Assembly: GCA_038851215.1 (NCBI GenBank)
Contig: JAWCLD010000004.1
Coordinates: 1 to 35,600 of the forward strand
Length of the DNA stretch: 35,600 bases
DNA from: Candidatus Nanoarchaeia archaeon
GTDB taxonomy: Archaea > Nanobdellota > Nanobdellia > UBA10117
Reading direction: 5' to 3'
A program made the position numbers and the translations under genes. Positions 7,940-25,277 of this stretch are shown here, piece after piece (position 1 is the stretch's first letter; each line of letters opens with the position of its first letter). The notes under the pieces are model-generated. The model ran no database searches. It was not told the DNA's origin and was given only the letters and a program-made list of their open reading frames with translations.

Positions 7940-8137
7940 TTAATCTTTTTTGTATCTTGCCACAATATCTATCAGATCTATGTGGCCAAGGAACAGTGCT
8001 CGGCAACAATACCTCTTTAGGCCAAGCTTGTCCAAAACTTCTTTAGCAGGCTCTCCTTTTTCTACTCTCTCCTTAAAAGCCTCCCATAAATGGGCAATTG
8101 GTTTACCACAACTGAAACAACGTACAGGTATTATCAT
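7940..8137 (-). CDS. rpoN: RNA polymerase subunit N (Rpo10)
   Basis: MIIPVRCFSCGK...RYCCR. Confidence 0.98.
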   Translation of the reverse strand: MIIPVRCFSCGKPIAHLWEAFKERVEKGEPAKEVLDKLGLKRYCCRALFLGHIDLIDIVARYKKD

Positions 8138-8163
8138 GTTTTCGGTTTAAACTTTTTAACCAT
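8134..8163 (-). CDS. 9-aa bridging mini-ORF MVKKFKPKT
   Basis: ATG 8 nt after the uS9 stop; TGA overlaps the rpoN ATG (ATGA). Confidence 0.3.
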   Translation of the reverse strand: MVKKFKPKT

Positions 8164-8171
8164 TTTAAAGC

Positions 8172-8582
8172 TTATCTATATGATTTTTGGCGTTTTGCTC
8201 TTGCTCTTGAATGCCTGCCAAATTTTTTTGGCTCTTTTCTTCTTGTATCTGCAACTAGCATAAACCTGTCGTAATCGAGATATGTTCGTTTTAGCTGCTC
8301 AGAACCGGTAAATGCAACAAGCGCTTTTGCAATCGCCAGACGACTAGCTTCTGCTTGTGAGCTCCAACCTCCGCCTGTTACAGTTACGTCTATGTCAACA
8401 TTCGCAGCCATTGGGCCAGCGATCATTAACGGTTCTTTCATTCGCAGGCGCGCAATTTCAGGATTGTATAAATCTAGGGGTATTGCATTTATCCTTATAA
8501 TACCTTTGCCGGCCTTTGCCGTAGCTCGAGCTATGGCTTCTTTCCTTTTTCCTGCTACATGCACCGACTTTGTTTCTACCAT
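8172..8582 (-). CDS. rps9: ribosomal protein uS9
   Basis: GKRKEAIARA, GGGWSSQAEA, RAKRQKSYR. Confidence 0.98.
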   Translation of the reverse strand: MVETKSVHVAGKRKEAIARATAKAGKGIIRINAIPLDLYNPEIARLRMKEPLMIAGPMAANVDIDVTVTGGGWSSQAEASRLAIAKALVAFTGSEQLKRTYLDYDRFMLVADTRRKEPKKFGRHSRARAKRQKSYR

Positions 8583-8583
8583 C

Positions 8584-9015
8584 TTACGCTTTTTGCCTCA
8601 ACAGCTGCGCTATTTCACCAACTGTTGTGTAAAATTCTGTTTTAAGCTTATCTACAGAAATATCTGTAAAAGTTTCAATTTTTTGTGTTTTATACTTATC
8701 TGGAATTCCAATAAAGCATTTTATTCTGCGAAGCGCAAGTCTACCTCGGCTTTCTTCAGACCATCTGCCGTGAGGCAACATTCCTCTTATTGCGCTTCTA
8801 ACAATTCGATCTGGCATCCTTTTTCTGAATGGGCCTTTAAAAGGTTGCACCCTCGCTTCCCGTTGTTTAAACTTTGCTAGTACAACGGACTTTTTGCCAG
8901 AAATGATTGCTTTTTCGCAATTTACTACAATAACTTCTTCGCCTGATAGCGCAAGCTTAGCAACTCTTGCTGCCATTCTACCTAAAATCAAGTTTGTTGC
9001 ATCGATAATTATCAT
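8584..9015 (-). CDS. rpl13: ribosomal protein uL13
   Basis: IIDATNLILGRMAA, VVNCEKAIISG, IRGMLP. Confidence 0.98.
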   Translation of the reverse strand: MIIIDATNLILGRMAARVAKLALSGEEVIVVNCEKAIISGKKSVVLAKFKQREARVQPFKGPFRKRMPDRIVRSAIRGMLPHGRWSEESRGRLALRRIKCFIGIPDKYKTQKIETFTDISVDKLKTEFYTTVGEIAQLLRQKA

Positions 9016-9056
9016 TTTGCACCAGTCAAAGCTTTTTGTTTCTCCTCCAAGCCCAT
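9012..9056 (-). CDS. 14-aa bridging mini-ORF MGLEEKQKALTGAK
   Basis: ATG 1 nt after the eL18 TAA; TGA overlaps the uL13 ATG (ATGA). Confidence 0.45.
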   Translation of the reverse strand: MGLEEKQKALTGAK

Positions 9057-9057
9057 T

Positions 9058-9408
9058 TTAACCTATTACTTTAATTCCCGTGCCCTTCGGGTTAGTTTTT
9101 AGTAGCTCGCCGATTGTCAACACTTTGCCGCCGGCGGCCATAATTTTGTTTTTAGCTGCGGATGAGAAGGACCACGCAGCAACATTCACTTTTTTTAATA
9201 ATGTTCCTGCAGCAAGCACTTTGCCTAGTACTAATACTGTTTCTCCATTTGCGGCAAATCTTTGTATCTTCGATAAATTGATCTCTCGTCGCATCCTGGT
9301 TGGCTTTTTAAGCTCTCGAGCTACAAGCTTCCACAGTTTTGCCTTCTGCGCGCTTAACTGTGCAATCGCTTCTTGTAGCGCCGGATTTGTCGGTCCTGTT
9401 TTCGCCAT
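9058..9408 (-). CDS. rpl18e: ribosomal protein eL18
   Basis: TNP, INLSKI, VLGKVL, FSSAAKNKI, NPKG. Confidence 0.97.
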   Translation of the reverse strand: MAKTGPTNPALQEAIAQLSAQKAKLWKLVARELKKPTRMRREINLSKIQRFAANGETVLVLGKVLAAGTLLKKVNVAAWSFSSAAKNKIMAAGGKVLTIGELLKTNPKGTGIKVIG

Positions 9409-9419
9409 CTTTTAATTGC

Positions 9420-9446
9420 AAAAGCCCAAAATTTAAAAGGGCTTTT
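9420..9446. promoter_or_regulatory. bidirectional TATA box framed by an 8-bp inverted repeat
   Basis: AAAAGCCC (9420-9427) and GGGCTTTT (9439-9446) flank ATTTAAAA; about 23 nt from both the rpl18e ATG and the tRNA-Leu 5' end. Confidence 0.6.
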
Positions 9447-9461
9447 CATTCACTTCATTAT

Positions 9462-9584
9462 GCGGAAGTGGGTGAGTGGTCAAAACCGCACGATTGAGGT
9501 CGCCCGAAATGCAATGCATTTCGGTTTTTGCGTCGAAAGTCGTGTGCCTTAGTGGCTGCGCAGGTTCGAATCCTGTCTTCCGCA
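9462..9584 (+). tRNA. tRNA-Leu(GAG) with 39-nt intron (9500-9538) at 37/38
   Basis: Acceptor GCGGAAG/CTTCCGC, stem CACGA/TCGTG, GAG at 9496-9498, long variable arm, GGTTCGAATCC; BHB helix TTGA/TCGA. Confidence 0.93.
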
Positions 9585-9590
9585 TTTTTG

Positions 9591-10317
9591 TTATTTTAAC
9601 TTAACCTCTTTCGTTTTTGCTTTAAGCACAGATATTGCTTCCGCAAGTATTTTTGCTGGCTCTAGCTGACCCCAACTTTCTATTGTGAACACGAATTTAT
9701 TTTCACTATTTGTAATTTTGACGCCGCTTTTTTCCAGAATTTCTTCATAAGAGGGTAGCCATTTTGTGAAGTCAAGTATTTCTATGTTTCCATCAGATTT
9801 CTTTGCAACGTTTGGAGGTATCGCAGCAAATGCCGCACTTAAGTCTGCGCCTTTTGTTTCAAATTCTGGCCATCCTCTATAATAAGCATGGCAAGCAGAC
9901 CACAAACTCAAGCTCTATATTTTGGCCTTCAAGCAACTTGACAATCGGTATTTTGCCATAAACTGCTTTTACAGCAGGGTCTTTAAACTTCAAGTCTTCT
10001 GCATAAACAGTTGCGGGACCTTTCGCTTTTAATGTTCCCTTGACAGAACACTTTGCACAAAGCTTTCCCTTGCAACTACATTCTTCAGGCAAGTTATAAG
10101 ATTTAAGATCTGTTTTCAGCGGGATTAGACCCAGTCTGTGCGCTATGATCTCATCGTAAAGAACAGAAGAATTTTGCGTGAAATAAACATCTTCGATTGC
10201 AAGCACCGGCACCTCAAAAGCCGCTGCTCGTCGTAGTGCATTTAAAAATGCCGGTCCAACGCCGTCTATAATAAATGTTATTTCATTTTCGGTTTGTTTG
10301 AGTACAGATATTTTCAT
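9591..10317 (-). pseudogene. rpoD: RNA polymerase subunit D (Rpo3), frameshifted at about 9903 in this sequence
   Basis: N-part NALRR...VPVLAIE...NSSVLYDEIIAHRLGLIPL...IPIVKL; C-part WSACHAYY...FVFTIESWGQL in another frame; the GxGxxHxK segment is absent. Confidence 0.88.
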
Positions 10318-10324
10318 ATTTATC

Positions 10325-10714
10325 TCACACCCTCCGTCCTCGCTTACCGCCTTTCTTTCGGCAGCCGCCATGAGGAATAGGAGTGACGTCTTCTATACCA
10401 ATAATTTGCAGACCTGCCCTCGTTAATGCCCTTATTGCCGGTTGCGCGCCAGGGCCAGGAAAACGGGTGCCATTTTGCCCACCTTTTGCTCTAACTTTAA
10501 CATAGATTTTTTTAATACCTTGCTCGAGAGCAGCCGCGGCAGCTTTGCTTGCAGCTTTGAGTGCAGCAGTTGGGCTTCCTTCGAGCCTATCTGCAGTCAC
10601 GACCTGTCCACCAGATGCTAATGCAATCGTTTCGGCACCTGTTAAGTCTGTGATGTGAACAATCGTATTATTGTAAGTCGCATAAATGTGTGCTATACCG
10701 ATTTTTTCAGCCAT
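10325..10714 (-). CDS. rps11: ribosomal protein uS11
   Basis: [40 protein letters not shown]; start at ATG 10714. Confidence 0.98.
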
Positions 10715-11291
10715 TTTGCACCTTAGCCTCTTCAGCTTTGGACTTTGTGCTTTCGAGCGCCTCACTTTCTCCAGTAGGCGCCAGTGCCTTAATTTGTGCT
10801 GAAGCCTCTTCTGGCTTTAATTTTGGCACGAAACCTGGCACGAAGCTGATATCGTCGTTAACTTTGACAAGATAAGATGGGGCATTTAATTTTTTACCAT
10901 TAACCATAATTTTGCCATGTACGATGAATTGTCGAGCTTGCATCGGAGTTAGCGCTAAACCTTTCTTAAACACGACAGTTTCAAGTCTTTTATTAAGTAT
11001 ATCTTTTAACTGCAATGACAGTACATCGTCGAGGTCTGCTTCAGCCGTTACAACGCCAAACTTTTGCAGCTTGTCCATCAAAATCTTTTGGGCGGCATCC
11101 TTTTTAGGACCGGGACGCATGCCGATGATTTCCTTCGCTTGTCGCTGCCAATTCCTAAGGATGGCGCGCATTTTCCAAATCTCTCGCATTCGGCGTATGC
11201 CATATTCTTTGGCCAAATTATGTTCTTCTTCTATTCGTTCCTTTTTCCAAGGATGCTTTGGTCCAGAATAAGTTTTCTTTTGGCGCCACAT
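10707..11291 (-). CDS. rps4: ribosomal protein uS4
   Basis: [35 protein letters not shown]. Confidence 0.97.
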
Positions 11292-11293
11292 AG

Positions 11294-11332
11294 TTACTTC
11301 AGTCCTTTTAGTTTGTATTCAAATGCTGGCAT
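11294..11332 (-). CDS. 12-aa bridging mini-ORF MPAFEYKLKGLK
   Basis: TAATG overlap with the uS13 stop; its TAA is 2 nt before the uS4 ATG. Confidence 0.45.
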   Translation of the reverse strand: MPAFEYKLKGLK

Positions 11333-11844
11333 TATTTAGCCTCCTTTTTTCCAGCCTTTGATGTGGTTTTTGGCGTCTCCTTTTGTCGCACTACGCCAAG
11401 TGTGCCACCTTTTCTGCCAGTAGTTCTTGTTCGCTGACCTCTTACCTTTTTACCTTTGGCATGTCTTATTCCGCGATAATTTTTGATCTTTTTCAAAAAT
11501 CTGATATCTAAATTCTGCTGCAGCCCGACATTAGCACCAACTAGATGCCTATCTTCACCAGTTTCTGGGTCTTTTCTTCGATTTAGCATCCAGGCAGGTA
11601 TTCCAAATTTTGAAGGGTTTGCCATACAAGCTTCTATTTTTTTTATGTCCTCTTCTGTGAGGTTACCACATCTTTCTAACTTTGGTAAATTTAATACACC
11701 ACAAATAGCATTGGAAAGCATAAAGTCAACACCTTTAACCCTAGTGAGAGCGAGCCATACAGACTCGTTGCCGTCGATATCTTTATCTACAATTCTAATC
11801 AAAGGTTTGAATTCTTTTGTTGCGGATTTTACTTCTTCAACCAT
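11332..11844 (-). CDS. rps13: ribosomal protein uS13
   Basis: IPAWMLNRRKDPETG, YRGIRH, VRGQRTRTTGR. Confidence 0.98.
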   Translation of the reverse strand: MVEEVKSATKEFKPLIRIVDKDIDGNESVWLALTRVKGVDFMLSNAICGVLNLPKLERCGNLTEEDIKKIEACMANPSKFGIPAWMLNRRKDPETGEDRHLVGANVGLQQNLDIRFLKKIKNYRGIRHAKGKKVRGQRTRTTGRKGGTLGVVRQKETPKTTSKAGKKEAK

Positions 11845-11852
11845 TCAATATC

Positions 11853-11925
11853 GCAGAAACTACAATGCGTTTTGTGCCATTTGGCAACCTTGCTCAAAGG
11901 CAAGGGAACACTGCAGTTACTCTGC
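11853..11925 (-). promoter_or_regulatory. structured 5' leader of the uS13 operon (candidate r-leader)
   Basis: Stems GCAGAG/UUCUGC, ACUGCAGUG/CAUUGUAGU, CCUUGC/GCAAGG, UGCC/GGCA; TATA at 11950-11957. Confidence 0.7.
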
Positions 11926-11979
11926 ATCAAACTTGCTTTTAGGAATGACTTTTTAAATATATCGCTTTTATTTATCGAG

Positions 11980-12465
11980 ATGAAAAGAACGCTACTTGCA
12001 ATTTCGATATTGGCTGCAATTGGCATAGGCTTGGCAGCATACCTCCTTTATTCCTATTATGCGCCAACAGGCGTATGCACAAGCTTTTGTAGCATTGTCC
12101 TCGAATCAGGATATGCAGTGCTATTTGGTATTCCAATTGCCTTAATAGGCCTTGGTGGGTTTGTTATCTTATTTACAATTGCGGCGTATGGCTTTATAAC
12201 CAATAATAGAAAAATACTAAAACCACTTTTTGCATTGTCGACGATTAGCTTGGTTTTCGTGGCATATCTTGTATACTTAGAACTGGTAAAAATACATCAA
12301 ATATGCAATTTCTGTACGGCTGCTCATTTTATTGGTATAGCAATTTGGGGCCTAACGCTATTTGAGTTGTTTAAAAATACGAAAAGCGCCGAGGCTGGGA
12401 TTTTCGCAGACCATGTAGCAAATAAGCCTTGTGGAGGAAACCCTAATCCTCCAGGTCAACTTTGA
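11980..12465 (+). CDS. vitamin K epoxide reductase (VKOR) family membrane protein
   Basis: CTSFCSIVLESGYAVLFGIPIALIG loop and ICNFC redox motif, four TM segments; start placed at ATG 11980. Confidence 0.88.
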   Translation: MKRTLLAISILAAIGIGLAAYLLYSYYAPTGVCTSFCSIVLESGYAVLFGIPIALIGLGGFVILFTIAAYGFITNNRKILKPLFALSTISLVFVAYLVYLELVKIHQICNFCTAAHFIGIAIWGLTLFELFKNTKSAEAGIFADHVANKPCGGNPNPPGQL

Positions 12466-12561
12466 ACCCAGATACCCTTTCGGGAACAAGCTAACTGTTT
12501 AATTCCAGGCTTGCGCAATCTCCTGTCCTTTTAAAGGGATACCAGGTTATGCGACCTCGGC
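12387..12561 (-). tRNA. tRNA-Ser(GGA) with three introns (12520-12540 at 20/21; 12493-12502 at 37/38; 12401-12460 at 59/60)
   Basis: Acceptor GCCGAGG/CCTCGGC with G73, stem CAAGC/GCTTG, GGA at 12506-12504, variable arm CCCGAAAGGG, T stem CTGGG/CCCAG. Confidence 0.87.
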
Positions 12562-12592
12562 ACATTATACAAAAAATTTAACTTTAAAAATA

Positions 12593-12763
12593 CTACTTTT
12601 GCATTTCTGGCGGTAGCAAGAGAGGGATTCCATTCTTTATCGAATAGACAAATTTGCACTTTTTGCAAGTCAAAGTTTGCTTCTTTTTATCATAAATCAA
12701 ATCGCATTTGTCAACAGGACAGCAAATTAACTGTAGAAGCTCCCGGGGTAGCGGTTTTGTCAT
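12593..12763 (-). CDS. trm112: Trm112-family methyltransferase activator (56 aa)
   Basis: MTKPLPRELLQLICCPVDKCDL...LTCKKCKFVYSIKNGIPLLLPPEMQK; below the ORF-track cutoff. Confidence 0.9.
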   Translation of the reverse strand: MTKPLPRELLQLICCPVDKCDLIYDKKKQTLTCKKCKFVYSIKNGIPLLLPPEMQK

Positions 12764-12764
12764 T

Positions 12765-13364
12765 TTACTTTACACCCTTTACAACCCAAAAGCCACCGCT
12801 CTTTGCTAATACTTTAACTTCTAAAAAGAGCTTTTTCATTTCATCAAAAAGGAATTGCCCACCTTTGGTTTTCCTAGCAACTATTTGCAAAGAGCCACCA
12901 GGGTTTAAATGATGTGGCGCCTCTCTAATAAGTTTTAAAACAATATCTCGACCTGCAGCCATTGGCGGATTTAACAAAATTATATCGAACTTTTCACCCT
13001 CTACAGCAGCGTAACCGTTTCCTTGCTTAACTTTTGCTCTAACTCTATTAAGAAGAACATTTTCTTTTGCGAGTTTCACCGCTCTCTTGTTAATGTCGGT
13101 TAGCACGACTTCGCATTGCGGGCAGGCTTTCGCAGCAACGATACCAAGTACGCCATAACCACAACCTAAATCTAACAAGCGGCCACCTTCAGTCGGCAAA
13201 TCTGCTTTCTCTATCAACAATTGTGAGGCCTTGTCTATCTTTTTGGCTGAAAAAACGCCGGAGGCTGACTTAAAAATTACATCAAAACCTCTAATCCTAT
13301 CCCTAATCATATATTTAACATATTTAGTTTTTGGCTTTTCGGCGTAGTAATGCTCAGCTTTCAT
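12765..13364 (-). CDS. class I SAM-dependent methyltransferase (RsmC/MTS-like)
   Basis: HYY, GVFSAKKID, LDLGCGYG, DINKRA, NPP motif. Confidence 0.9.
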   Translation of the reverse strand: MKAEHYYAEKPKTKYVKYMIRDRIRGFDVIFKSASGVFSAKKIDKASQLLIEKADLPTEGGRLLDLGCGYGVLGIVAAKACPQCEVVLTDINKRAVKLAKENVLLNRVRAKVKQGNGYAAVEGEKFDIILLNPPMAAGRDIVLKLIREAPHHLNPGGSLQIVARKTKGGQFLFDEMKKLFLEVKVLAKSGGFWVVKGVK

Positions 13365-13423
13365 CAAGTAGAAATTAAAAAGTACAAATAAAAGCTCATC
13401 GTTTCTTTAAAATACAAACTCTT

Positions 13424-14383
13424 TCACAGATTCTTAGCAGAGCTTATTAGCACAATATCAGTTTTTATAGCCATACCTTTTTGTGCTTTTTGAAGCTCTT
13501 TTGCATCTAATTGTGAAATGCCAATCGCAACAAGATTTTTGTTTACATCATAAATAGCAGTAACAGAGTTTTTTTGCAAATCTGACGTAAAGGCCAAAAT
13601 GCCTGGTACAAACACCGGCGAACCGTTTTTTATTCGGGGCAAAACACCTTCGTCCACATAAACCGCTGGTAGATGCGCAACAGCAGTTTCAGGTGGCAAG
13701 ATTATATTTTTAATATAGATGTCCTTTTTTGTCTTCAGATATTTTTTGTAATTTTGTCTAATGTCGTTTAAGGTAACAGATTCGGAGATTTTAAAAGGGC
13801 CAGCTTGCAGCCTTCGCAAAGAAGCCATATGCCCGCCAACTTTCAAATATTCTCCTATGTCATGACATAGTTTTCTTATATATGTCCCTGCTTCGCAGCC
13901 AACTTCGAACTCTACATTATTATTTTCAAATTTCTTTAAAGTTAACCAATAAATTTCTCTTTCTCTTAATTTGCGGGCAACAGCAGATACCCTTGGAGGT
14001 AGTTGTTTAATCTTGCCTGTGAATTTTCTAAATGCCTTTTCTACCATAGCTTTGGAAACTTTTCCATGCAAATGCATCGTGCCTTCATAGACCTTTCCAG
14101 CTTTAGAGATGACAGAAAGAACCTTAACGCCTTTGCCGATTCCGATAGGTAATACGCCTGTCACAAGCGGATCAAGCGTACCTGCGTGTCCAACTTTAGG
14201 CTGCTCTAATAATTTTCTTATCTTATTGCCGCAATGAATTGATTTGGGCCCTCTTGGTTTGTCCAAATTGATAATGCCAAAATTTAGTAATTCGTCAGCT
14301 GATCTTTTGGCAGGTTTGCCCAGTCTTATTTTTCGTTTATAAATCAATTTTTTTTCAACTAGCTCAAAGGGCAATTTGTTCAT
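13424..14383 (-). CDS. cbf5: H/ACA pseudouridine synthase Cbf5 (TruB family, PUA domain)
   Basis: GIINLDKPRGP, GHAGTLDP, CEAGTYIRKLCHDIG. Confidence 0.96.
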   Translation of the reverse strand: MNKLPFELVEKKLIYKRKIRLGKPAKRSADELLNFGIINLDKPRGPKSIHCGNKIRKLLEQPKVGHAGTLDPLVTGVLPIGIGKGVKVLSVISKAGKVYEGTMHLHGKVSKAMVEKAFRKFTGKIKQLPPRVSAVARKLREREIYWLTLKKFENNNVEFEVGCEAGTYIRKLCHDIGEYLKVGGHMASLRRLQAGPFKISESVTLNDIRQNYKKYLKTKKDIYIKNIILPPETAVAHLPAVYVDEGVLPRIKNGSPVFVPGILAFTSDLQKNSVTAIYDVNKNLVAIGISQLDAKELQKAQKGMAIKTDIVLISSAKNL

Positions 14384-14814: not shown

Positions 14815-14853
14815 TAATTTAAAATAAAAAAACAAGTTTTAAGTTTTATCTAA

Positions 14854-15225
14854 TTATTCCGCTATTTTGGGCTTTGCTTTTTTTAGCTTTGGAAGCTTAA
14901 GTTTCTTTTCTTCTTGAGATTTAGTCTCGGTTGTTGCAACTTTTGCTTCTGCTTTTTTTGGCTTTTGGGGTTTTGCTGGAGCTTTAGTTTCTGGTTTTAT
15001 TCCTAACGCTTGTAAAGCGGCAAGAACCTCATCATGAGTTGCACCTTTTTTGATGTCTGCTTTTTGCGGTAGCAATTCGAGATGATTAATGTTACATTTT
15101 CTTCGCCTTGTGTTCCCGTCTATCAAAACAAAGTTTTTGTCGATTATATCTACAATAAGGCATTCTTTACCTGCATCTCTACCCGCAATCTTTACACATA
15201 ATCTTCCGACTTCAATAGCCGCCAT
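14854..15225 (-). CDS. rpl14e: ribosomal protein eL14 with K/P-rich tail
   Basis: EVGRLCVKIAGRDAGKECLIVDIIDKNFVLIDG. Confidence 0.97.
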   Translation of the reverse strand: MAAIEVGRLCVKIAGRDAGKECLIVDIIDKNFVLIDGNTRRRKCNINHLELLPQKADIKKGATHDEVLAALQALGIKPETKAPAKPQKPKKAEAKVATTETKSQEEKKLKLPKLKKAKPKIAE

Positions 15226-15260
15226 AGCAATTCCTCACAAATGGAAATTTTAGTTACCAT

Positions 15261-15647: not shown

Positions 15648-15667
15648 ATTGTTTCGATCGACTCTCT

Positions 15668-16096
15668 CTAAACTACTTTTAAAGCCTTTCTAAATGCCGA
15701 TGTAAAGAGGATTGAGAACATAATATAGGTACCAACCCACTTCAAATGCCCTTCCCAGAATGGAAGTGGCAATATAACCATTGAGCTATAAATCTTTCCA
15801 AGCAGAGCAAATATTATAATGAAAGGCACTAATGTCAATAACATTGGCTTCATACTTTGCGACATCAGCTTCATGTTTAGTGGCATTAATTTGTTCTGGA
15901 GCTCTGCAATTTTTTGAGGGTTGTCTTTATTCTGCTTCATTTCTTCTTGAAGTTTTTTTACTTCTTCCCGAATAGCTTTTACAAGAGACTGGTCAGTTGC
16001 ATATTTATATACAAGGGTGCTTCCAAGCGCCAGCGCTGCAGATATACCAATTATAGATAATAGTGCGTATTGTTGTAGTATTTCGATTATTGCCAT
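15668..16096 (-). CDS. DUF106 (EMC3/TMCO1, Oxa1 superfamily) membrane protein
   Basis: TM, coiled coil, SMKPMLLT, WVGTYI; conserved position between secY and eL34. Confidence 0.9.
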   Translation of the reverse strand: MAIIEILQQYALLSIIGISAALALGSTLVYKYATDQSLVKAIREEVKKLQEEMKQNKDNPQKIAELQNKLMPLNMKLMSQSMKPMLLTLVPFIIIFALLGKIYSSMVILPLPFWEGHLKWVGTYIMFSILFTSAFRKALKVV

Positions 16097-16164
16097 GAGT
16101 AGTACACCAAGCTAATGGAACAATCAACTTTATTGAAATTTGTGTTTACCATTTTATCTTACAC

Positions 16165-17559
16165 TCATTCAGATACTATTATTTTTCTCAAAGCAGGATG
16201 CATATCAAATGCGTGTTGCTTTGCTATATCTTCATACATTCTGTACATTATCATTACTGAAAGCAAAATTCCTGTTCCTCGACTTAATGCTCCGCCTAAG
16301 TCAGCGAGAGCCGCAAGTGCGCCAACAGTTATTGCACCCATTACCGTTAGACCAGGTATGTATCTGTTGAGAATAGATTCGAGGACGCGAGGATCGCGCC
16401 TAAAGCCAGGTATCTGCAAACCAGAAGCTATGATCTGTTTTGCCTGCGATGCAGCATCCATATTTGCCGTCTTTACCCATAGTACGGAGAAAAGAACAGC
16501 TCCGACTATCATGAATGTACAATAACCAAGTACCTGGCCTAACATTGTCCAGTTCGCTGAGCGAGTTATAAGTGCGCTAATTATGTCTGGCGAATGTATC
16601 CATTTTACAAAACCTGAGGCAGGCATGTTACCTGAAAATGTTCCAAGTATGGGAAAGCCCGCATTTTGTAGCAATCTTGCCCATAATTGTATATTTGCCA
16701 TCAGTGCGGCAATGAGGATTACAGGTATATTGGACGTATAAATGAAGCGAAGAGGCCACCGCATTCCAAAACCTCGCACTCTGCCAAATGACAAGGGTAT
16801 TTCCACTTTCATCGCCTGTGCATAAACTGATATGAGAAATACTACTATTGTAATTATAATCCCTGAAACCGCTAGAGCTGCACCTATACTGTCGCCTACG
16901 GAAAGAGCTTTGAAAAGAAACGGCACTGCACCTATTGGCACATCAGGATTCTGTGGCGATGCAAGAGGATTGAACGCTCTTACAAAAATTTGCCCGGCCA
17001 CCCCCGCAACGATAAAGAGACCTACACCAGAGCCAAAACCCCACTTAGAGCAGACCTCATCCATTAGTACTATAAGATAGCCACCTATTGCAAGCTGGCT
17101 AATTAATACGATCTGCATCAGCACATAACTTAAAGTTCCTGCTAATGCTGGATCTGGAGCTAGCCCACCCATCAACACATACACGGCAGCTTCGAACACT
17201 ACAAAGAAAAGGACTGCAACTTTTTGCATCGCCTGAAATTTTGCCTTTCCTTCTTTTGATGTTAAATCGATACCGAGAAGACCTGAGCCGACAAGCAACT
17301 GCATTATAATACTTGCAGTTACAATTGGCCCAATACCTAAAGATACAATAGAACCGAAGCTTGCGCCCAATATTATTGAAAGGTATTCGAATTGTTGTAG
17401 TGCATTTTGGCCAAGACCTATCAGTGGGATATACGAAAGAATGAAAAATAATACTAAGATTATGCCTGTCCAAAACAGTTTTTTGTTAAAAGCAAGTCTT
17501 TCTACCTCCGGTTTCTTGACTTCAGGGAAAAACTTTGCTATGCTTTGCCAATCGATCAT
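16165..17559 (-). CDS. secY: preprotein translocase SecY
   Basis: LGIGPIVTASIIMQLL, KWGFGSGVGLFI, YTSNIPVIL, GLQIPGFRRD. Confidence 0.98.
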   Translation of the reverse strand: MIDWQSIAKFFPEVKKPEVERLAFNKKLFWTGIILVLFFILSYIPLIGLGQNALQQFEYLSIILGASFGSIVSLGIGPIVTASIIMQLLVGSGLLGIDLTSKEGKAKFQAMQKVAVLFFVVFEAAVYVLMGGLAPDPALAGTLSYVLMQIVLISQLAIGGYLIVLMDEVCSKWGFGSGVGLFIVAGVAGQIFVRAFNPLASPQNPDVPIGAVPFLFKALSVGDSIGAALAVSGIIITIVVFLISVYAQAMKVEIPLSFGRVRGFGMRWPLRFIYTSNIPVILIAALMANIQLWARLLQNAGFPILGTFSGNMPASGFVKWIHSPDIISALITRSANWTMLGQVLGYCTFMIVGAVLFSVLWVKTANMDAASQAKQIIASGLQIPGFRRDPRVLESILNRYIPGLTVMGAITVGALAALADLGGALSRGTGILLSVMIMYRMYEDIAKQHAFDMHPALRKIIVSE

Positions 17560-18014: not shown

Positions 18015-18015
18015 T

Positions 18016-18060
18016 TTAATTCACATTCTGCAAATGAAGCGTTTTCATAACCGCATCCAT
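18016..18060 (-). CDS. 14-aa bridging mini-ORF MDAVMKTLHLQNVN
   Basis: ATG 1 nt after the uL30 TAA; its TAA is 1 nt before the uL15 ATG. Confidence 0.45.
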   Translation of the reverse strand: MDAVMKTLHLQNVN

Positions 18061-18061
18061 C

Positions 18062-18538: not shown

Positions 18539-18552
18539 TTTTGGTCAAACGC

Positions 18553-19332: not shown

Positions 19333-19333
19333 T

Positions 19334-19840
19334 TTACTTCAGTATTTTTTCCTTTACAGAATGGAAGTCTTCTACTATCTGATTTTTAAAGTAAGCTGCA
19401 ATATGTTTGCCTAAAATCCTATCTTCAGAAATATTTGTACTGTCAAAAGCTATTTGAAGACCTGCATCAATAGCACCTTTAATTGCGGCAAAGACTTTTG
19501 CTCCTTTTGTTGCACTATGCAAGCCAATATCTGCAATTGCATTTATTATTTTGGCTTGCTTTGCGAGTTTGCCTGCCAGTAAGCCTGTCAAATATGCGGC
19601 AGGCGTATTTTTGCAACTGTATTTCCAACCAAAATTTTTTAATTTTGCTGAATTTATAGTTAGCAAAGTTCTATCGCCTTTCGGATCATAGTTTACGAAT
19701 TGTATTGTAATGTAGTTTGTAGATTTTCTAACAACAATCCTTGGTAGTGCAGACTTTAGTAGCTTCAAACGTTTTTGATAGTTTGTCTTACCTTCGCGTC
19801 TTCTTCTGAATTTAACTGCGAATCGTGGTCCTCTTGCCAT
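19334..19840 (-). CDS. rpl18: ribosomal protein uL18
   Basis: FRRRREGKTNY, NTPAAYLTG. Confidence 0.97.
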   Translation of the reverse strand: MARGPRFAVKFRRRREGKTNYQKRLKLLKSALPRIVVRKSTNYITIQFVNYDPKGDRTLLTINSAKLKNFGWKYSCKNTPAAYLTGLLAGKLAKQAKIINAIADIGLHSATKGAKVFAAIKGAIDAGLQIAFDSTNISEDRILGKHIAAYFKNQIVEDFHSVKEKILK

Positions 19841-19843
19841 TTT

Positions 19844-20290
19844 TTATTTCATAAGTTTGTTTTGCTGTAGATAGATAAACATATGTCCTTTGTCTCTGAA
19901 AAAGCCGCCTTTTGCTTTTGCATAAATATCTTTGTAAACAGCTTGTGTTATTCTTCCAGAATTTTTTAAACGCTTTAATGTGGTCCTTATCAATCTAATT
20001 TTTCGCATCCAAAGTGTTTTGGCAGGTAGACGGGCATATTTTGCACCCTTTCTGCTTCCGTGCCCTCGTCTCCTGCTTTTTCTTCGTTGCGCCAGCTTTG
20101 CTTTTGCTCTGACCCTCGAAGGCGTTTTTGGTGGTAAAATCTTGATTGCACCACTTTTAATCAAACTACGAATATCCGTCTTCGTTATAGCATCTTTAAT
20201 TTCAGAAATTCTTTCTGGCACTAATACGACTCGGTCTACACCAACACCCGCAACTTTAGCAGCCAGAATTTTTTGATTGTGGAGCTCCAT
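19844..20290 (-). CDS. rpl19e: ribosomal protein eL19
   Basis: AITKTDIR, RRRGHGSRKG, WMRKIR, AKGGFF. Confidence 0.97.
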   Translation of the reverse strand: MELHNQKILAAKVAGVGVDRVVLVPERISEIKDAITKTDIRSLIKSGAIKILPPKTPSRVRAKAKLAQRRKSRRRGHGSRKGAKYARLPAKTLWMRKIRLIRTTLKRLKNSGRITQAVYKDIYAKAKGGFFRDKGHMFIYLQQNKLMK

Positions 20291-20859
20291 TATTTCTTAA
20301 CCTCCGTACTCTTAGGCTTAGGCTCTGTTTTAGTTTCGAGTTTAACCTCTTTTAATTTAGTGACTTTAGTCATAGACTTGGGCTCGGCCTCTACTTCAGA
20401 TTTAATTTCTGGCTTGGTTTCGGATTTGCTTTCTGCTTTTGCCTTTATTTTTGTTTCATAATCAGAAATAAATTTAGCAGCATCAACATTTACAAAAAGA
20501 ATTTTCTTTTCCATAGCCGCTTTCAAAATCTCATATCTTTTTTTGTTACCTATATTAGCGCTTAGAATACCTATTTGATGTGGTGGATGTATTTTATTTA
20601 TATCAGCAAGCGTATTGACATAAACAAATTCCGCTCCAGATTTGTGCAACCCGCGAACTTTTGCAGGATTTCTATAACCAACTTTGACGCTTGCGCGATG
20701 ACCGCGCTTGTGCTGGCGCATCTTACTATGGCGCCCTTTTGGCTTTCTCCATACTTCATCACGTATTTTGGCTCTGTGGTGATAATCTTGTCGAAGAAAC
20801 TTCGGTCTGGTTTTATTTTTCTTTTGCCTTAACTCTAATAGCTCTGTAGGAACTGTCAT
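20290..20859 (-). CDS. rpl32e: ribosomal protein eL32 with K/E-rich tail
   Basis: PKFLRQD, WRKPKGRHSKMR, GYRNP, RGLH. Confidence 0.96.
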   Translation of the reverse strand: MTVPTELLELRQKKNKTRPKFLRQDYHHRAKIRDEVWRKPKGRHSKMRQHKRGHRASVKVGYRNPAKVRGLHKSGAEFVYVNTLADINKIHPPHQIGILSANIGNKKRYEILKAAMEKKILFVNVDAAKFISDYETKIKAKAESKSETKPEIKSEVEAEPKSMTKVTKLKEVKLETKTEPKPKSTEVKK

Positions 20860-21413
20860 TTTGGTTTTTGGATTATGTAAATTCCGTCAGGAAAGACTCT
20901 TCTGTCTCTAGCTCTAACTTGAGTTGTTTGTTCAATAGAAGTTGCGGTTCTGCCAGCCAACTCGATATCTGGTGACTCAACAGTTATGATATTGCCTTGG
21001 ATAGAAACTTTAACATTTGCAGGTATGGAAGTTTTGCGCGGCTTTTTTTCGCCAAGAAAATTAGAAACAGAAAATTCCGAACCAGAAATAGAAGCAGTAA
21101 TTGGAAAATGAGTAAAAGTAATTTTCAACTTGTATGTATAAGGTTTTTGGACGCCTGTAATAATATTTTTAATGTGTGAATTAAAAGCGCCCGCAATCAT
21201 TCTCGCAGCTGCGGTTTTGTTTTTTGTTTTAATTAAGACTTTATTTTCTTCGACCTTAATTTCAATGCTCTTTGTTGGAAAAGTCCTTTCAACTTTGCCA
21301 GCAGGTCCACTAGCAATTATATTACCATTTTGTATTGCTAGCTGTACACAAGGTGGTATTATAATCTCATATACCGTATTATTGTGTACTGGAGCGTTGG
21401 TTTTAGTAGACAT
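20856..21413 (-). CDS. rpl6: ribosomal protein uL6
   Basis: HFPI, NFLGEK, RDRRVFPDGIYI; start at ATG 21413. Confidence 0.97.
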   Translation of the reverse strand: MSTKTNAPVHNNTVYEIIIPPCVQLAIQNGNIIASGPAGKVERTFPTKSIEIKVEENKVLIKTKNKTAAARMIAGAFNSHIKNIITGVQKPYTYKLKITFTHFPITASISGSEFSVSNFLGEKKPRKTSIPANVKVSIQGNIITVESPDIELAGRTATSIEQTTQVRARDRRVFPDGIYIIQKPK

Positions 21414-21792
21414 ATGCAAGCAACACACCTCCTTGATTTGCAGCCTTAGCGTCTAAATGCGTCATAATACCTTTTGACGTCGAAACTATTAACCTACCAA
21501 AATCTTTCGCTGGCAAATATCTTTTTTCAAATTTTTCAAATTCTTCAAGCGTTGCAGAAAATCTTGGCTTAATAACACCAATATCGTTAATTAGATTGCT
21601 TAAGATAATTCGAGCATGGCCTCCTCTTTTATCGGTAAAAATTTCAAAAGCTTCGATATAGCCTTCTTTTTTAAGAATTTCAAAAATCTTAATTACTAAT
21701 TTAGAAATTGGTCTAACTATTACTTCTTTTTGTCCCTTTTCTTTCACATTTTTCAGTGCACATAGTGCATCTGCTAACACGTCGTGTTTCAT
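21403..21792 (-). CDS. rps8: ribosomal protein uS8
   Basis: DVLADAL, IKPRF, YLPAKDFG, GGVLLAYVY; ATG at 21792, in-frame TTG at 21819. Confidence 0.97.
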   Translation of the reverse strand: MKHDVLADALCALKNVKEKGQKEVIVRPISKLVIKIFEILKKEGYIEAFEIFTDKRGGHARIILSNLINDIGVIKPRFSATLEEFEKFEKRYLPAKDFGRLIVSTSKGIMTHLDAKAANQGGVLLAYVY

Positions 21793-21826
21793 TTTACCTT
21801 TAGTGAGTTGCGTCAGCAACGGTATT

Positions 21827-22045
21827 TCACCGCAGCTTCCTGAATCCTAAATCCTTCGCAACTTCGCGGAAACATCTGCCACAGATATTTAACTTATATT
21901 TAGATATGTGTCTGCGCGTCCCTCCGCATCTAATGCAGATGGCCAGCCTTTGGCCAAACTTGCGTGGTTTAGGAACATTATGTCTGAGGAACCTTTGCTT
22001 CTTAGTTTTGCCGACCATGATTTTCTCTGATACGGCTCGTTTCAT
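21827..22045 (-). CDS. rps14: ribosomal protein uS14
   Basis: CIRCG...ICGRCFRE...LGFRK. Confidence 0.96.
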   Translation of the reverse strand: MKRAVSEKIMVGKTKKQRFLRHNVPKPRKFGQRLAICIRCGGTRRHISKYKLNICGRCFREVAKDLGFRKLR

Positions 22046-22046
22046 T

Positions 22047-22583
22047 CTATTCAGACTCCTTTTCTTTTAGACCAAACTTAGCCTGCGCCCATGCGAAGGC
22101 TTCATCAGCTTTTATTATGTGGCTAGCACCGATTTTAGCCTTTTTAATCTTTCTCTTTGCAACCCGGTAACCTCTGCGCTTAAGCGAAACGGCAACGTCA
22201 AGCCCTATAATACCAATTTCAGGGTCGTATTTCATTTCAGGTATATCTACGTATTCCTTGATGCCAAATGAGAAGCCATTTTTTGTGAATGATTTTCGAG
22301 GAAGTGCAAAGTCCACCGCCGCAAGTAAGCGCTTTAGCAACGCCTCTGCTGCCTTGCCTCTAACTGTAACACGGGCGCCAATAGGCAAGCCCGGCCTGAT
22401 TTTCCATGTTGGGATTCGCTTTTTGGCAAAAGTTTTTACCGCCCTTTTGCCAGAAATTTTACTTAGTAAAGAAACTGCTTTTTCTACATTCTCTACTTCA
22501 GTGCCTGCGCCGATATTTAATGTTAAAGAAGCAATTAAAATTTCTTTCATTGGATTTTCTTTTATGTTTATGTTAGAGCTCAT
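22047..22583 (-). CDS. rpl5: ribosomal protein uL5
   Basis: NPMKEI, PIGARVTVRG, FSFGIKEY, YDPEIGIIG. Confidence 0.97.
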   Translation of the reverse strand: MSSNINIKENPMKEILIASLTLNIGAGTEVENVEKAVSLLSKISGKRAVKTFAKKRIPTWKIRPGLPIGARVTVRGKAAEALLKRLLAAVDFALPRKSFTKNGFSFGIKEYVDIPEMKYDPEIGIIGLDVAVSLKRRGYRVAKRKIKKAKIGASHIIKADEAFAWAQAKFGLKEKESE

Positions 22584-23293
22584 GGTAGTGTAATCTCCGC
22601 TGCATTTTTGCCAATCACGAAAAGCTCCTTTAGAGGAATTTTTAGCTTTTTTTCGTCAATTATCGTAATTGCGTATCGTTTTTTCCGTAAAATGCCTTCT
22701 TCTACAAAATCTGAAATTGTAACAACCTTGCCAGCGTGAGCACCACCTATTACATATGCTATGCAACCAGGTTCAAGTGCTATGTGTTTGATGGGTTTAC
22801 CCTCTTTTGCATCAAAAAGGACGCAATCACCTATTTTATAAATATCTTTATCGGCAATGAAATTCCAACCATTCGAAACGTGAATTTGCATTTTACCACC
22901 TTTAATTGTGTGTTTGCCTTCAACTTTTGTGATAATGAGATCTGTTTCTGTATGAGGGATTTCTATAAGCTTTAGCTGGCCTTTATTATCGAGCACAACA
23001 CGATAGTATTTATTATACTTCAAAATTTTTAGAGTATCAAAAAGACCGACAGGGAAACGTGCCTCTTTCCTTACCTTACCGTTTACTAAAACGAGATTTT
23101 GATTTAGAATTCTTTTGACTTCGGCTTTAGACTTGGCTAGATGTAAAATATCGATAAGATAAATTTGAAGGGGCATACTGTATTGCATAGAATGTGTAGC
23201 AGGTATGGGTTTAGCTATCCATTTAGCCTTTTTTCGTGCTATAGGCCATGTTTTCGGCGCCGCAAGTCTCGAAAGATGTTTTTGTTTTGACAT
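22580..23293 (-). CDS. rps4e: ribosomal protein eS4
   Basis: HLSRLAAPKTWPI, FPVGLFD, GGAHAG. Confidence 0.97.
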   Translation of the reverse strand: MSKQKHLSRLAAPKTWPIARKKAKWIAKPIPATHSMQYSMPLQIYLIDILHLAKSKAEVKRILNQNLVLVNGKVRKEARFPVGLFDTLKILKYNKYYRVVLDNKGQLKLIEIPHTETDLIITKVEGKHTIKGGKMQIHVSNGWNFIADKDIYKIGDCVLFDAKEGKPIKHIALEPGCIAYVIGGAHAGKVVTISDFVEEGILRKKRYAITIIDEKKLKIPLKELFVIGKNAAEITLP

Positions 23294-23294
23294 T

Positions 23295-23675
23295 TTATCT
23301 CCGTTCTAAAACTTTGAGCCTTTTCTTATCGTCTAAGTTTAAGGAAACGAGCATTAGTTTTGAAGGATCGATAGGTCTTGAAACTTTTGGAGCTCCTTCC
23401 TTTTTCTGGAGCTCTGCACCTTTTACGAAAACCTTATAGCGGTGCAGGTCAACTTTTTCTACATCTCCAATAATGCCACGAAACTTACCTCTCATTATTT
23501 TCACCTTATCACCCTTTCTTATTGGCAGAGAGCGTTTTTTGTACTTTAAGCGTAATTCTTTTGACAAATGACCTGCAATCATTTTATGTCTTAGATGCAG
23601 CGGTGCATTTGTTCTGTATCTTCGCTGCTTTTTTGGCAGTGAAGATGATCTCCATTTTATGCTAAAGTATTTCAT
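23295..23675 (-). CDS. rpl24: ribosomal protein uL24
   Basis: PKKQRRY, APLH, IRKGDKVKIMRG. Confidence 0.97.
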   Translation of the reverse strand: MKYFSIKWRSSSLPKKQRRYRTNAPLHLRHKMIAGHLSKELRLKYKKRSLPIRKGDKVKIMRGKFRGIIGDVEKVDLHRYKVFVKGAELQKKEGAPKVSRPIDPSKLMLVSLNLDDKKRLKVLERR

Positions 23676-23744
23676 AGCATGAACCTCGTTCTTTCAGCTC
23701 TAAATTATATCTATGGTTATGTTTCCACCTTTTTCTTTTGTTTA

Positions 23745-24149
23745 TCATAATACGATTGTTGCCTGCTTAGCCACATTGGGCCAGCGTATGGCCACCTCCT
23801 TTGCTATTGGACCTTTGATAAGAGTGCCTTTTGGCATCCCAAGTCTTACATCTTTTAGCACAACAGCAGCATTATCTTCGAAGCGAACTTTAAGACCTTC
23901 AGGTCTTGTAAACTCTTTCTTTTGTCTTACTACAACTGCTTGGACAACTTTATGTCGCATTTCAGGGTCGCCAACTTTTACAGTACCTGTCACAAGGTCG
24001 GCAACGCCAGCAGACATTAGTTTTTTTGTCCTTGTCTTGTAGCCTTTTACAGTAATTATTTGTAAGATCTTGGCGCCACTGTTATCAACAACATTTAGAT
24101 TTGCACCAATCGGCAGTGCTTTACTAACCTTTGATTTGATCGCTTTCAT
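23745..24149 (-). CDS. rpl14: ribosomal protein uL14
   Basis: DNSGAK, AVVVRQKK, FEDNAAV, GPIAKE. Confidence 0.98.
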   Translation of the reverse strand: MKAIKSKVSKALPIGANLNVVDNSGAKILQIITVKGYKTRTKKLMSAGVADLVTGTVKVGDPEMRHKVVQAVVVRQKKEFTRPEGLKVRFEDNAAVVLKDVRLGMPKGTLIKGPIAKEVAIRWPNVAKQATIVL

Positions 24150-24215
24150 TTTTATCTTCTGTAAAAGTTCGATAAGCTAATTTCGACTTTGCAATCTTTG
24201 AAATATAATTGTTTA

Positions 24216-24518
24216 TCATAGTTTCTCCCAAACTACAAATTGTACTGTTTTTGAAATTGGTTTGCATTCGACGATTCTTACTTTATCACCTGTCTTGACC
24301 GAAATGCAATCGGGAACATGAGCCATAACTCTTGTCCGTTTTTTTTCATAACGTTCATATTTAGGTAAATAGCGCAAAAAGGGCCACTCAACTTTAACGG
24401 TTTTTTGCATTTTATCTCCAATAACAATACCATCAAAAACCTGGCCACGAGCCTTCAGGCTACCGTGAAAAGGGCAGTTTCTATCTGTGCAGAGTGTTTC
24501 AGTCTTTTTTTCAGCCAT
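24216..24518 (-). CDS. rps17: ribosomal protein uS17
   Basis: CTDRNCPFHG, KYERYEK, ECKPISKT. Confidence 0.98.
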   Translation of the reverse strand: MAEKKTETLCTDRNCPFHGSLKARGQVFDGIVIGDKMQKTVKVEWPFLRYLPKYERYEKKRTRVMAHVPDCISVKTGDKVRIVECKPISKTVQFVVWEKL

Positions 24519-24543
24519 GCTCTACGAGTGCCTTAGAATTAGC

Positions 24544-24556
24544 TTTTATAAACCTT
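24544..24556 (-). promoter_or_regulatory. internal promoter before rps17
   Basis: Minus-strand AAGGTTTATAAAA about 26 nt upstream of ATG 24518. Confidence 0.65.
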
Positions 24557-24584
24557 ATCTTAAGGCCGTACCCTGTTAGCAGAG

Positions 24585-24866
24585 TTAGTATTTTGGAAAC
24601 TTTCTCTTAATGCGTTCCCAAGGTCTGCCCACTAACAATTTTCCATTCACTTGCACTTTTTTGCCATCTGGTAGTTCTATTACTAAAATTACGGCTTCTT
24701 TGAAAATTTTCTTTTCTCTACCATTTACTTCTAAAGTAATTGTTTGATAAGATTCATCAATAATTTTGCCTGCAAGACCAATATTTGCAGGATTTTTGGA
24801 TTTGATAACTTTTGCGTTAAGGCCTATTAGTTCCTGCCGCACAATGTTAATTGGTGTAATAGACAT
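24585..24866 (-). CDS. rnp1: ribonuclease P protein Rpp29/POP4
   Basis: ELIGLNAKV, GLAGKIIDE, GRPWERIK; position between aIF1 and uS17. Confidence 0.95.
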   Translation of the reverse strand: MSITPINIVRQELIGLNAKVIKSKNPANIGLAGKIIDESYQTITLEVNGREKKIFKEAVILVIELPDGKKVQVNGKLLVGRPWERIKRKFPKY

Positions 24867-24867
24867 T

Positions 24868-25197
24868 TTAGCTCTTGCTTACTTCATCTCGAATCTCTAT
24901 ATTTCCAACATTAAAGCCTAGTTTCTGCAAAACCTCTTTGATTCTTTTTCGGTGGTCTCCTTGCAATTCTATCGCATTATCTCTAATATTTCCTCCGCAG
25001 GCCAAATTATGTTTTAGTTGCTTGATAACATTTTTAAGTTCTTGACCTTTCACATCAATACCTTCAATCAATGTTAGAAACATATCTTTATACTTGCCTT
25101 TAACTATTTTGACAATTATTTTCTGTTTCTCTTTAGCTATCGTTTCGCACACACAAAGTTCTTTCGGCAAACCACAGACAGGACAGATCTCACTCAT
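24868..25197 (-). CDS. sui1: translation initiation factor aIF1 (SUI1)
   Basis: CPVCGLPKELCVCE, LACGG, IELQGDH. Confidence 0.97.
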   Translation of the reverse strand: MSEICPVCGLPKELCVCETIAKEKQKIIVKIVKGKYKDMFLTLIEGIDVKGQELKNVIKQLKHNLACGGNIRDNAIELQGDHRKRIKEVLQKLGFNVGNIEIRDEVSKS

Positions 25198-25277
25198 ATT
25201 GGTAAAACAGTATTATTCATTAATAGTCTAAATCTCCAAATTACTTCTAAAAATCTTAGATTTTTTTGTATTCTCAT
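25194..25277 (-). CDS. 27-aa bridging mini-ORF MRIQKNLRFLEVIWRFRLLMNNTVLPI
   Basis: ATGA overlap with the uL29 stop and ATGA overlap with the aIF1 start. Confidence 0.5.
   Translation of the reverse strand: MRIQKNLRFLEVIWRFRLLMNNTVLPI

Follow-up and report, generated by a model that had tools for sequence, protein, structure and literature searches.

Whether short open reading frames (ORFs) lying between the genes of an operon can carry ribosomes from one stop codon to the next start codon is the question raised by a 35.6-kb contig of a Candidatus Nanoarchaeia archaeon (JAWCLD010000004.1; the whole contig was analysed and is referred to here as the window). Its minus strand holds a long ribosomal-protein cluster (about 29802 to 6217), all genes of which lie on the same strand, and the genome to which it belongs (G000) comprises 468 kb in 34 contigs, with 38% G+C and a completeness of 93.8% by marker genes. 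With starts in the window taken as the first ATG, the cluster junctions include nine 1-nucleotide (nt) gaps, five ATGA overlaps (−4 nt) and one −1 overlap; the nine gaps comprise the seven that a first-pass annotation of the sequence had named (uL3/uL4, uS3/uL29, aIF1/Rpp29, uL24/eS4, uL5/uS14, uL18/uS5 and uL13/uS9) together with g31/g32 and RpoN/g43. The cluster also contains 13 co-directional spacers of 30–120 nt, and 4 of the 13 are bridged exactly by an ATG mini-ORF (that is, one that starts −4 to +1 nt from the upstream stop and ends −4 to +2 nt from the next start), each at the position that the first-pass annotation had given. Three further frames begin at the upstream stop and end 14–34 nt past the next start; the geometry of coupled gene pairs (stop and start overlapping or a few nucleotides apart) is found at both ends of the four and at the upstream end only of the three. 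In the following lines, all for the minus strand, d1 is the distance in nucleotides from the upstream stop to the mini-ORF ATG, d2 that from the mini-ORF stop to the next start, P the proportion of shuffled spacers with an exact bridge and SD a Shine–Dalgarno-like motif.

25194–25277, minus strand: exact mini-ORF between uL29 and aIF1 (SUI1), 27 codons; d1 −4, d2 −4, with ATGA at both ends; P 0.059; TATA score 2.0.
18016–18060, minus strand: exact mini-ORF between uL30 and uL15, 14 codons; d1 +1, d2 +1; P 0.021; an SD-like GAGG precedes the mini-ORF start.
11294–11332, minus strand: exact mini-ORF between uS13 and uS4, 12 codons; d1 −1 (TAATG), d2 +2; P 0.012; GGAGG in the 3′ end of uS13 precedes the mini-ORF ATG.
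9012–9056, minus strand: exact mini-ORF between eL18 and uL13, 14 codons; d1 +1, d2 −4 (ATGA); P 0.031; TATA score −2.3.
24124–24219, minus strand: overshooting ORF between uS17 and uL14, 31 codons; ATGA at the uS17 stop, ends 26 nt inside uL14; TATA score 0.8.
23662–23748, minus strand: overshooting ORF between uL14 and uL24, 28 codons; ATGA at the uL14 stop, ends 14 nt inside uL24, which has its own GAGGT at −12.
15192–15260, minus strand: overshooting ORF between eL34 and eL14, 22 codons; begins immediately behind the eL34 stop and extends 34 nt into eL14, which has GAGG at −11.

This bridging is real and non-random. When only the spacer interiors were shuffled, with dinucleotides preserved and the flanking genes fixed (8,000 shuffles per cluster spacer), 0.25 exact bridges were expected against the four observed (P(≥4) = 5.7 × 10^−5), and 0.70 frames reaching or passing the next start against the observed 7 of 13 (P(≥7) = 1.2 × 10^−7). 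An ATG within 4 nt of the stop occurs in 8/13 cluster spacers, compared with 7/112 co-directional spacers of 30–120 nt outside the cluster, 6/36 convergent gene ends and 11/56 longer co-directional gaps (Fisher 5 × 10^−6). Genes for the genome-wide comparison came from a simple gene caller, which predicted 516 genes in G000 and recovered 38 of 41 manually defined genes, all with identical starts; it missed uS14, the Trm112-like g32 and RpoN and consequently covers 11 of the 13 cluster spacers in that test.

The same pattern appears in related organisms, at other places. Of 41 related genomes searched with SecY, 40 proved to contain the cluster, and a scan of metagenomes returned no locus above 83% SecY identity; the comparison set consisted of 40 stretches from related genomes and 80 metagenome loci (L001–L120), annotated by homology to the window proteins. 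Most relatives are tight at the junctions that carry exact mini-ORFs in G000 (uL29/aIF1, gap ≤5 nt in 21/23; uL30/uL15, ≤12 nt in 28/35; uS13/uS4, ≤2 nt in 15/16; eL18/uL13, ≤1 nt in 10/11), and the G000 spacers are therefore best regarded as recent lineage-specific inserts; the conserved geometry that the first-pass annotation had proposed to look for at orthologous junctions is absent. From 1,705 canonically adjacent junctions, after dropping 335 without a confident start and then 13 duplicates, we obtained 98 unique spacers of 30–120 nt in the relatives. These contain 20 exact bridges (shuffle mean 2.7), 37 cases of an ATG at the stop (25.3) and 24 frames that reach or pass the next start (5.5), none of which counts was reached in 1,000 shuffles. 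The excess is specific to the reading frame, the 20 exact bridges falling to 3.9 and 4.4 after deletion of 1 or 2 nt inside the spacer, and it depends on length: among L001–L120, exact bridges number 6/61 (4.3 expected) in spacers of 8–14 nt, 1/43 (1.7) at 15–29 nt, 8/53 (2.0) at 30–59 nt and 12/45 (0.8) at 60–120 nt, such that the excess begins only above about 30 nt. Spacers of 121–300 nt are exactly bridged in 11/29 cases, which may represent ordinary unannotated genes and are not counted here as evidence for a relay. The excess below 121 nt is also concentrated in one lineage, with 14/40 spacers bridged at loci of at least 70% SecY identity (1.0 expected) and 6/58 at more distant loci (1.7 expected).

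The signals around the spacers help to place them. In G000, the A+T content upstream of first genes peaks between positions −28 and −23 relative to the ATG, a sign that these genes have leaderless transcripts, and the 3′ end of the 16S rRNA carries the usual anti-SD; the genome appears, from its sequence, to combine leaderless first genes with coupled internal genes. Scored with a TATA matrix trained on first genes of G000, spacers outside the cluster (median 4.6) resemble first genes (4.7) rather than tight junctions (1.0) and look like promoters between transcription units, which is the likely reason why bridging is not genome-wide. Bridged cluster spacers score −2.3 to 2.4, like tight junctions and unlike first genes, and none of the three promoter-like cluster spacers (Rpp29/uS17, 5.8; Cbf5/methyltransferase, 5.4; uS9/RpoN, 7.6) is exactly bridged. 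In the relatives, neither signal is significantly associated with bridging (TATA score of at least 5 in 0/20 bridged versus 6/78 other spacers, p 0.34; SD-like motif before the downstream gene in 12/20 versus 28/78, p 0.07). Genome-wide, SD-like 4-mers precede 55/124 tight-junction genes, against 16/124 in a control window and 14/124 for first genes; at the seven 1-nt junctions named above, such 4-mers lie at −17 to −7 for 4/7 genes, and the earlier remark that these junctions mostly lack an obvious SD was thus inaccurate. An SD-like motif also lies ahead of the mini-ORF start in 5/9 cases in G000 and 10/20 in the relatives, placing the old junction signals at the left end of the insert, while aIF1, uL15, uS4, uL14 and RpoN have no SD-like motif of their own.

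We suggest that the bridged spacers arose as insertions of 35–76 nt into formerly tight (−4, −1 or +1 nt) stop–start junctions of long ribosomal-protein operons, and that the old junction would have been kept at the left end (that is, the upstream stop, an ATG within −4 to +1 nt of it and often an SD in the 3′ end of the upstream gene). The available text of a study of Haloferax volcanii and Escherichia coli (PMC10666635) reports that reinitiation is reduced by about 60% at a distance of 13 nt and abolished at ~22 nt; an insert of 35–76 nt should therefore uncouple the downstream gene. Inserts would persist mainly if the frame from the retained ATG is open to a stop within a few nucleotides of the displaced start, in which case a ribosome would end the upstream gene, reinitiate on the mini-ORF, translate the inserted stretch and, having stopped beside the next start, initiate once more, two termination–reinitiation events replacing one. 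Selection would probably be purifying (that is, inserts that break the coupling would be lost), and in the relatives it may also act on a palindromic element, described below, that carries its own coupled frame. The excess over chance, its frame specificity and its onset at 30 nt fit a reading in which the frame carries the ribosome, and we put the probability that lineage-specific inserts have been kept where a bridging frame preserves termination–reinitiation coupling at roughly 55%. Such a relay is plausible in a narrower form than the one initially proposed. Selection on frame geometry agrees with a pattern that is non-random in this operon, recurs in relatives, is frame-specific and is confined to spacers above ~30 nt; against it, the pattern does not extend to the whole genome or to orthologous junctions, and it is weak in other orders of the class. 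Tolerance of inserts, under purifying selection, accounts better than a designed system for a feature that is limited to one lineage and not conserved, and for the SDs that co-occur with it and the many spacers that have no bridge.

Several observations weigh against the coupling interpretation, and we set them out together. Outside the cluster, the 112 spacers of G000 hold 1 exact bridge where 0.81 is expected, 7 cases of an ATG at the stop (12.5 expected) and 3 frames that reach or pass the next start (2.86 expected), and the excess over shuffled spacers is therefore confined to the ribosomal-protein cluster, failing the genome-wide count that the first-pass annotation had proposed as a check. 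The frame test in G000 alone (4 exact bridges versus 0 and 1.3 after a 1- or 2-nt deletion) is weak by itself and compatible with one third of neutral remnants lying in frame. In 60 genomes from other families of the class, 5/104 spacers are bridged against 1.6 expected (2.7 and 2.4 when the frame is broken), which is likewise weak. Downstream genes have an SD-like motif in 12/20 bridged spacers of the relatives (4/9 in G000), and 44/98 spacers in the relatives have no bridge, no TATA and no SD, from which it follows that a bridge is not required for expression. The three overshooting ORFs of G000 run 14–34 nt into the next gene, which is not an established coupling geometry; gene starts in the relatives were assigned by homology and are unverified; and the translation of the mini-ORFs, as well as the dependence of downstream genes on them, is what we infer from the data above.

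The origin of the inserts bears on how else they might be explained. At uS17/uL14, uL14/uL24, uL30/uL15 and eL19/uL18, relatives (L002, L007, L008, L013, L016, L020, L025 and L038) carry inserted ORFs of 45–150 codons that are tight at both ends and mostly unrelated to each other; of ten that were scanned, one encodes an MtN3/PQ-loop membrane protein and one a ChaB protein, and eight fall below the Pfam cut-off. At some inserts, junction sequence is duplicated on either side (L014, 9/9 nt; L054, 8/9; L016, 7/9; L061, 9/9), and direct repeats of 8–15 nt also occur at some mini-ORF inserts in the relatives. Tandem duplication of the junction was considered as a general origin and rejected, given that 12/13 spacers of G000 have no significant similarity to flanking gene ends, the only one that does (Rpp29/uS17) having no ATG at the stop; across 24 exact cases, paired identity is slightly above unpaired identity (permutation p 0.13 and 0.03). 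An origin as frameshifted tails of the flanking genes was likewise rejected, as the flanking proteins share termini and lengths with their orthologues.

If the spacers were neutral fossils (that is, insertions, junction duplications or what deletion has left of inserted genes, with the old ATG still at the upstream stop, a stop at the new start and about a third in frame by chance, without any role), duplicated junction sequences, direct repeats and non-homologous ORFs inserted repeatedly at uS17/uL14, uL14/uL24 and uL30/uL15 would all be expected, and the 4 exact bridges among the 8 G000 spacers with an ATG at the stop are near one third. We nevertheless consider this rather improbable, if the most serious competitor, because the in-frame class in the relatives is ~4.5 times each out-of-frame class (20 versus 3.9 and 4.4), the ~17 excess exact bridges are not accompanied by double that number of out-of-frame remnants (ATG at the stop in 37/98 versus 25 expected), and the G000 spacers, Rpp29/uS17 excepted, do not resemble the ends of the genes beside them. 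Factor-dependent termination of transcription on untranslated RNA occurs in archaea, and translation of a spacer might accordingly serve to protect the transcript from cleavage or premature termination (polarity), with the next gene started by its own SD. The SD-like motifs before downstream starts (in 12/20 and 4/9, as given above) would suit this, as would the overshooting ORFs, which would still cover the spacer; it is made unlikely by the concentration of the excess in frames whose stop is within 4 nt of the next start (20, compared with 4 that overshoot it) and by the lack of an SD-like motif at aIF1, uL15 and uS4.

That the mini-ORFs encode functional micro-proteins is less likely again. 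Their frames are kept open in the frame test, 9/20 have GC after the ATG as in strong genes, and genuine domains (MtN3/PQ-loop and ChaB) occur among the longer inserted ORFs; however, tblastn against the G000 genome and 188 loci gave no convincing match for any of the nine G000 peptides (the two lowest E-values, 4.5 × 10^−4 and 0.007, belong respectively to the g27/g28 frame, part of which overlaps eL14, and to a hit of 14 residues with the uS17/uL14 peptide), different genomes have unrelated peptides at a given junction, and the inserts are absent from close relatives. Selection of a chance pattern from the many windows scanned is very improbable: a P of 5.7 × 10^−5 for one window is not extreme among some 250,000, yet the pattern was replicated independently in the relatives, where 0/1,000 shuffles reach the observed count, and both the frame test and the contrast with the rest of the G000 genome argue against it.

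In the relatives, part of the inserted sequence is a repeated palindromic element, 55–96 nt long, whose arms are inverted repeats and which may or may not include a perfect 8-bp hairpin module. This element lies at uL24/eS4 in L001 and L002, at uL18/uS5 in L002, at uL30/uL15 in L041 and at a non-ribosomal junction in G007. Its frame bridges all four ribosomal junctions exactly and overshoots by 13 nt at the non-ribosomal fifth. The copies at these five junctions, from three sources, are as follows.

L002, 16554–16649: copy of the repeated palindromic element.
L002, 12224–12311: copy of the repeated palindromic element.
L001, 15937–15993: copy of the repeated palindromic element.
L041, 6565–6621: copy of the repeated palindromic element.
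L127, 1489–1596: copy of the repeated palindromic element.

Two long copies correspond to the short ones with an additional 39 nt in frame. The element is present in three copies in G007 and in one or two each in G013 and L041, and the hairpin module occurs by itself in G013 and three times in G005. The G000 spacers are single-copy (that is, they match nothing but themselves in the genome); the four exact spacers of G000 contain no tandem arrays, and the only arrays, both weak, are in two other spacers, uS9/RpoN (2.7 copies of a 9-nt unit) and g30/g31 (2.0 copies of a 14-nt unit). A bolder extension, which we hold to be possible though doubtful, is that a rule applies to the ribosomal-protein operons of this family of small-genome archaea whereby any junction insert above ~30 nt, from a 12-codon filler to a 150-codon foreign gene, would have to be read by a frame coupled at both ends, and that at least one palindromic mobile element may have evolved such a frame together with an SD as an archaeal counterpart of mycobacterial interspersed repetitive units (MIRUs). 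As a separate observation, the uL29/aIF1 spacers of L002 and L046 align over their whole length and both contain a self-complementary GCAAATTTGC-type motif, but an ATG at the stop, with its frame extending to aIF1, is present in that of L046 alone.

The idea that a short ORF may serve solely to deliver a ribosome is not new, as the first-pass annotation had supposed it might be: the available text of a 2025 review (PMC12548453) treats such ORFs and presents MIRUs as the natural case, namely mobile repeats that insert at start codons with an ORF coupled at −4. A search of the full-text literature, with subscription journals and supplements outside its scope, returned no account of archaeal ribosomal-protein operons in which coupling is chained by way of filler ORFs. 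The exact mini-ORFs share with known termination–reinitiation gene pairs, as far as these are described in the accessible text of PMC6728339 and PMC10666635, the −4, −1 and +1 geometry at both ends and the SD motifs embedded in the upstream gene, and the reported loss of coupling at ~20 nt (PMC10666635) is in keeping with bridging that sets in from 30 nt upwards; they differ in that two junctions here appear to be chained by a short frame without a conserved product. MIRUs are likewise short operon-spacer inserts whose ORF, in the orientation of the flanking genes, overlaps their stop and start and is coupled to a neighbour at −4 spacing, a coupling thought to limit the harm of insertion (PMC12548453, in the part available). 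The palindromic element of G007, G013 and L041 behaves alike, whereas the G000 spacers are single-copy and unstructured, with no tandem units except for the two weak arrays, and the host here is an archaeon and the site a ribosomal-protein operon. Short upstream ORFs and bicistronic designs that deliver ribosomes resemble the mini-ORFs in that the product is irrelevant and the frame ends at the start of the gene served; those covered in the same review text lie at the 5′ end with their own initiation, whereas the frames here would be loaded from the preceding stop.

Rickettsia palindromic elements insert in frame into genes and become part of the protein. They offer a parallel in that selfish or inserted DNA persists, in a genome that is reduced and gene-dense, at places where it leaves translation uninterrupted; they lie inside coding sequences, unlike the inserts described here, which lie between genes. 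If the bridging frames are translated, they would provide natural comparative support for the very short distance that termination–reinitiation needs, show how gene-dense genomes tolerate inserts in essential operons with balanced products, and point to an archaeal parallel of the mycobacterial MIRUs. In annotation, such frames in operon spacers would best be entered as coupling elements instead of being left out or labelled as proteins. Were the family-wide rule true, the operon would constitute a natural record of the distance over which an archaeal ribosome can move after termination.

Other elements of the cluster spacers are listed below. The four looser single ORFs reported earlier (24124–24219, 23662–23748 and 15192–15260 above, and 8134–8163 here) are present, and the fifth, given as one ORF at 16087–16168, resolves into two in series. 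The TATA box that had been described in the Rpp29/uS17 spacer is borne out by its position weight matrix (PWM) score and by a spacer core that is 87–93% conserved in three relatives (L002, L041 and L042).

16168–16154 and 16152–16087, minus strand: two serial ORFs after SecY (4 codons with an ATGA start, a 1-nt gap, then 21 codons), the second ending 9–11 nt inside the EMC3/TMCO1-like gene.
8134–8163, minus strand: ORF of 9 codons between uS9 and RpoN; begins 8 nt after the uS9 stop and overlaps RpoN by ATGA; probably incidental, as the spacer holds a promoter-like TATA (score 7.6 at −35).
24543–24554, minus strand: TATA-box-like element in the Rpp29/uS17 spacer; PWM score 5.8; no ATG at the stop.
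13385–13396, minus strand: TATA-box-like element in the Cbf5/methyltransferase spacer; PWM score 5.4; no bridging ORF.

Folding of the 13 cluster spacers gave z-scores of −1.45 to +1.30 and supported no alternative leader or attenuator structures, and Rfam returned no family in the spacers and a single tRNA in the window. C/D-box or other structured RNAs were considered for the G000 spacers and discarded, there being no convincing boxes by eye, no folding signal and no Rfam match. Within the uS13/uS4 mini-ORF, 11305–11325 (minus strand) matches a conserved stretch of uL6 in distant relatives at 20/21 nt and in the same frame; we set this aside as probably due to chance, because the uL6 of G000 itself differs at that motif. 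In the contig of one sequencing run, position 11325 carries a G>A change (plus strand) that converts the third codon of this mini-ORF from Ala to Val and introduces no stop.

The gene content of the window is well supported, Pfam families being confirmed for 19/20 scanned proteins (uL29, SUI1/aIF1, RNase P p29, uS17, uL14, uL24, uL30, uL15, uS13, uS4, eL18, uL13, uS9, RpoN, EMC3/TMCO1-like, eL34, Cbf5, the methyltransferase and a KOW protein that is eL14 by position); g29 is the only one of the 20 without a Pfam family. The termini of the window genes match orthologues of related genomes in length and sequence. Between the Trm112-like gene and uS13, 566 nt (12027–12592, minus strand) contain no convincing ORF, and a scan of 11800–12800 gave no Rfam match at E ≤0.1 there, except for a weak sub-threshold snoRNA hit. 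The tRNA identified by Rfam occupies 123 nt at 9462–9584 on the plus strand, opposite to the operon, and probably contains an intron; ARAGORN reported no tRNA in the window. Contigs from four DNA sequencing runs of one study differ from the window by 16 single letters in 17.5 kb, which is too uniform for a test of selection; these runs may include the sample from which the window itself came. The contigs of all four runs carry 33 extra letters at 9902–9903, where a gene resembling RpoD appears split in the window into two overlapping ORFs (10371–9877 and 9911–9591), and this split may therefore reflect an assembly gap.

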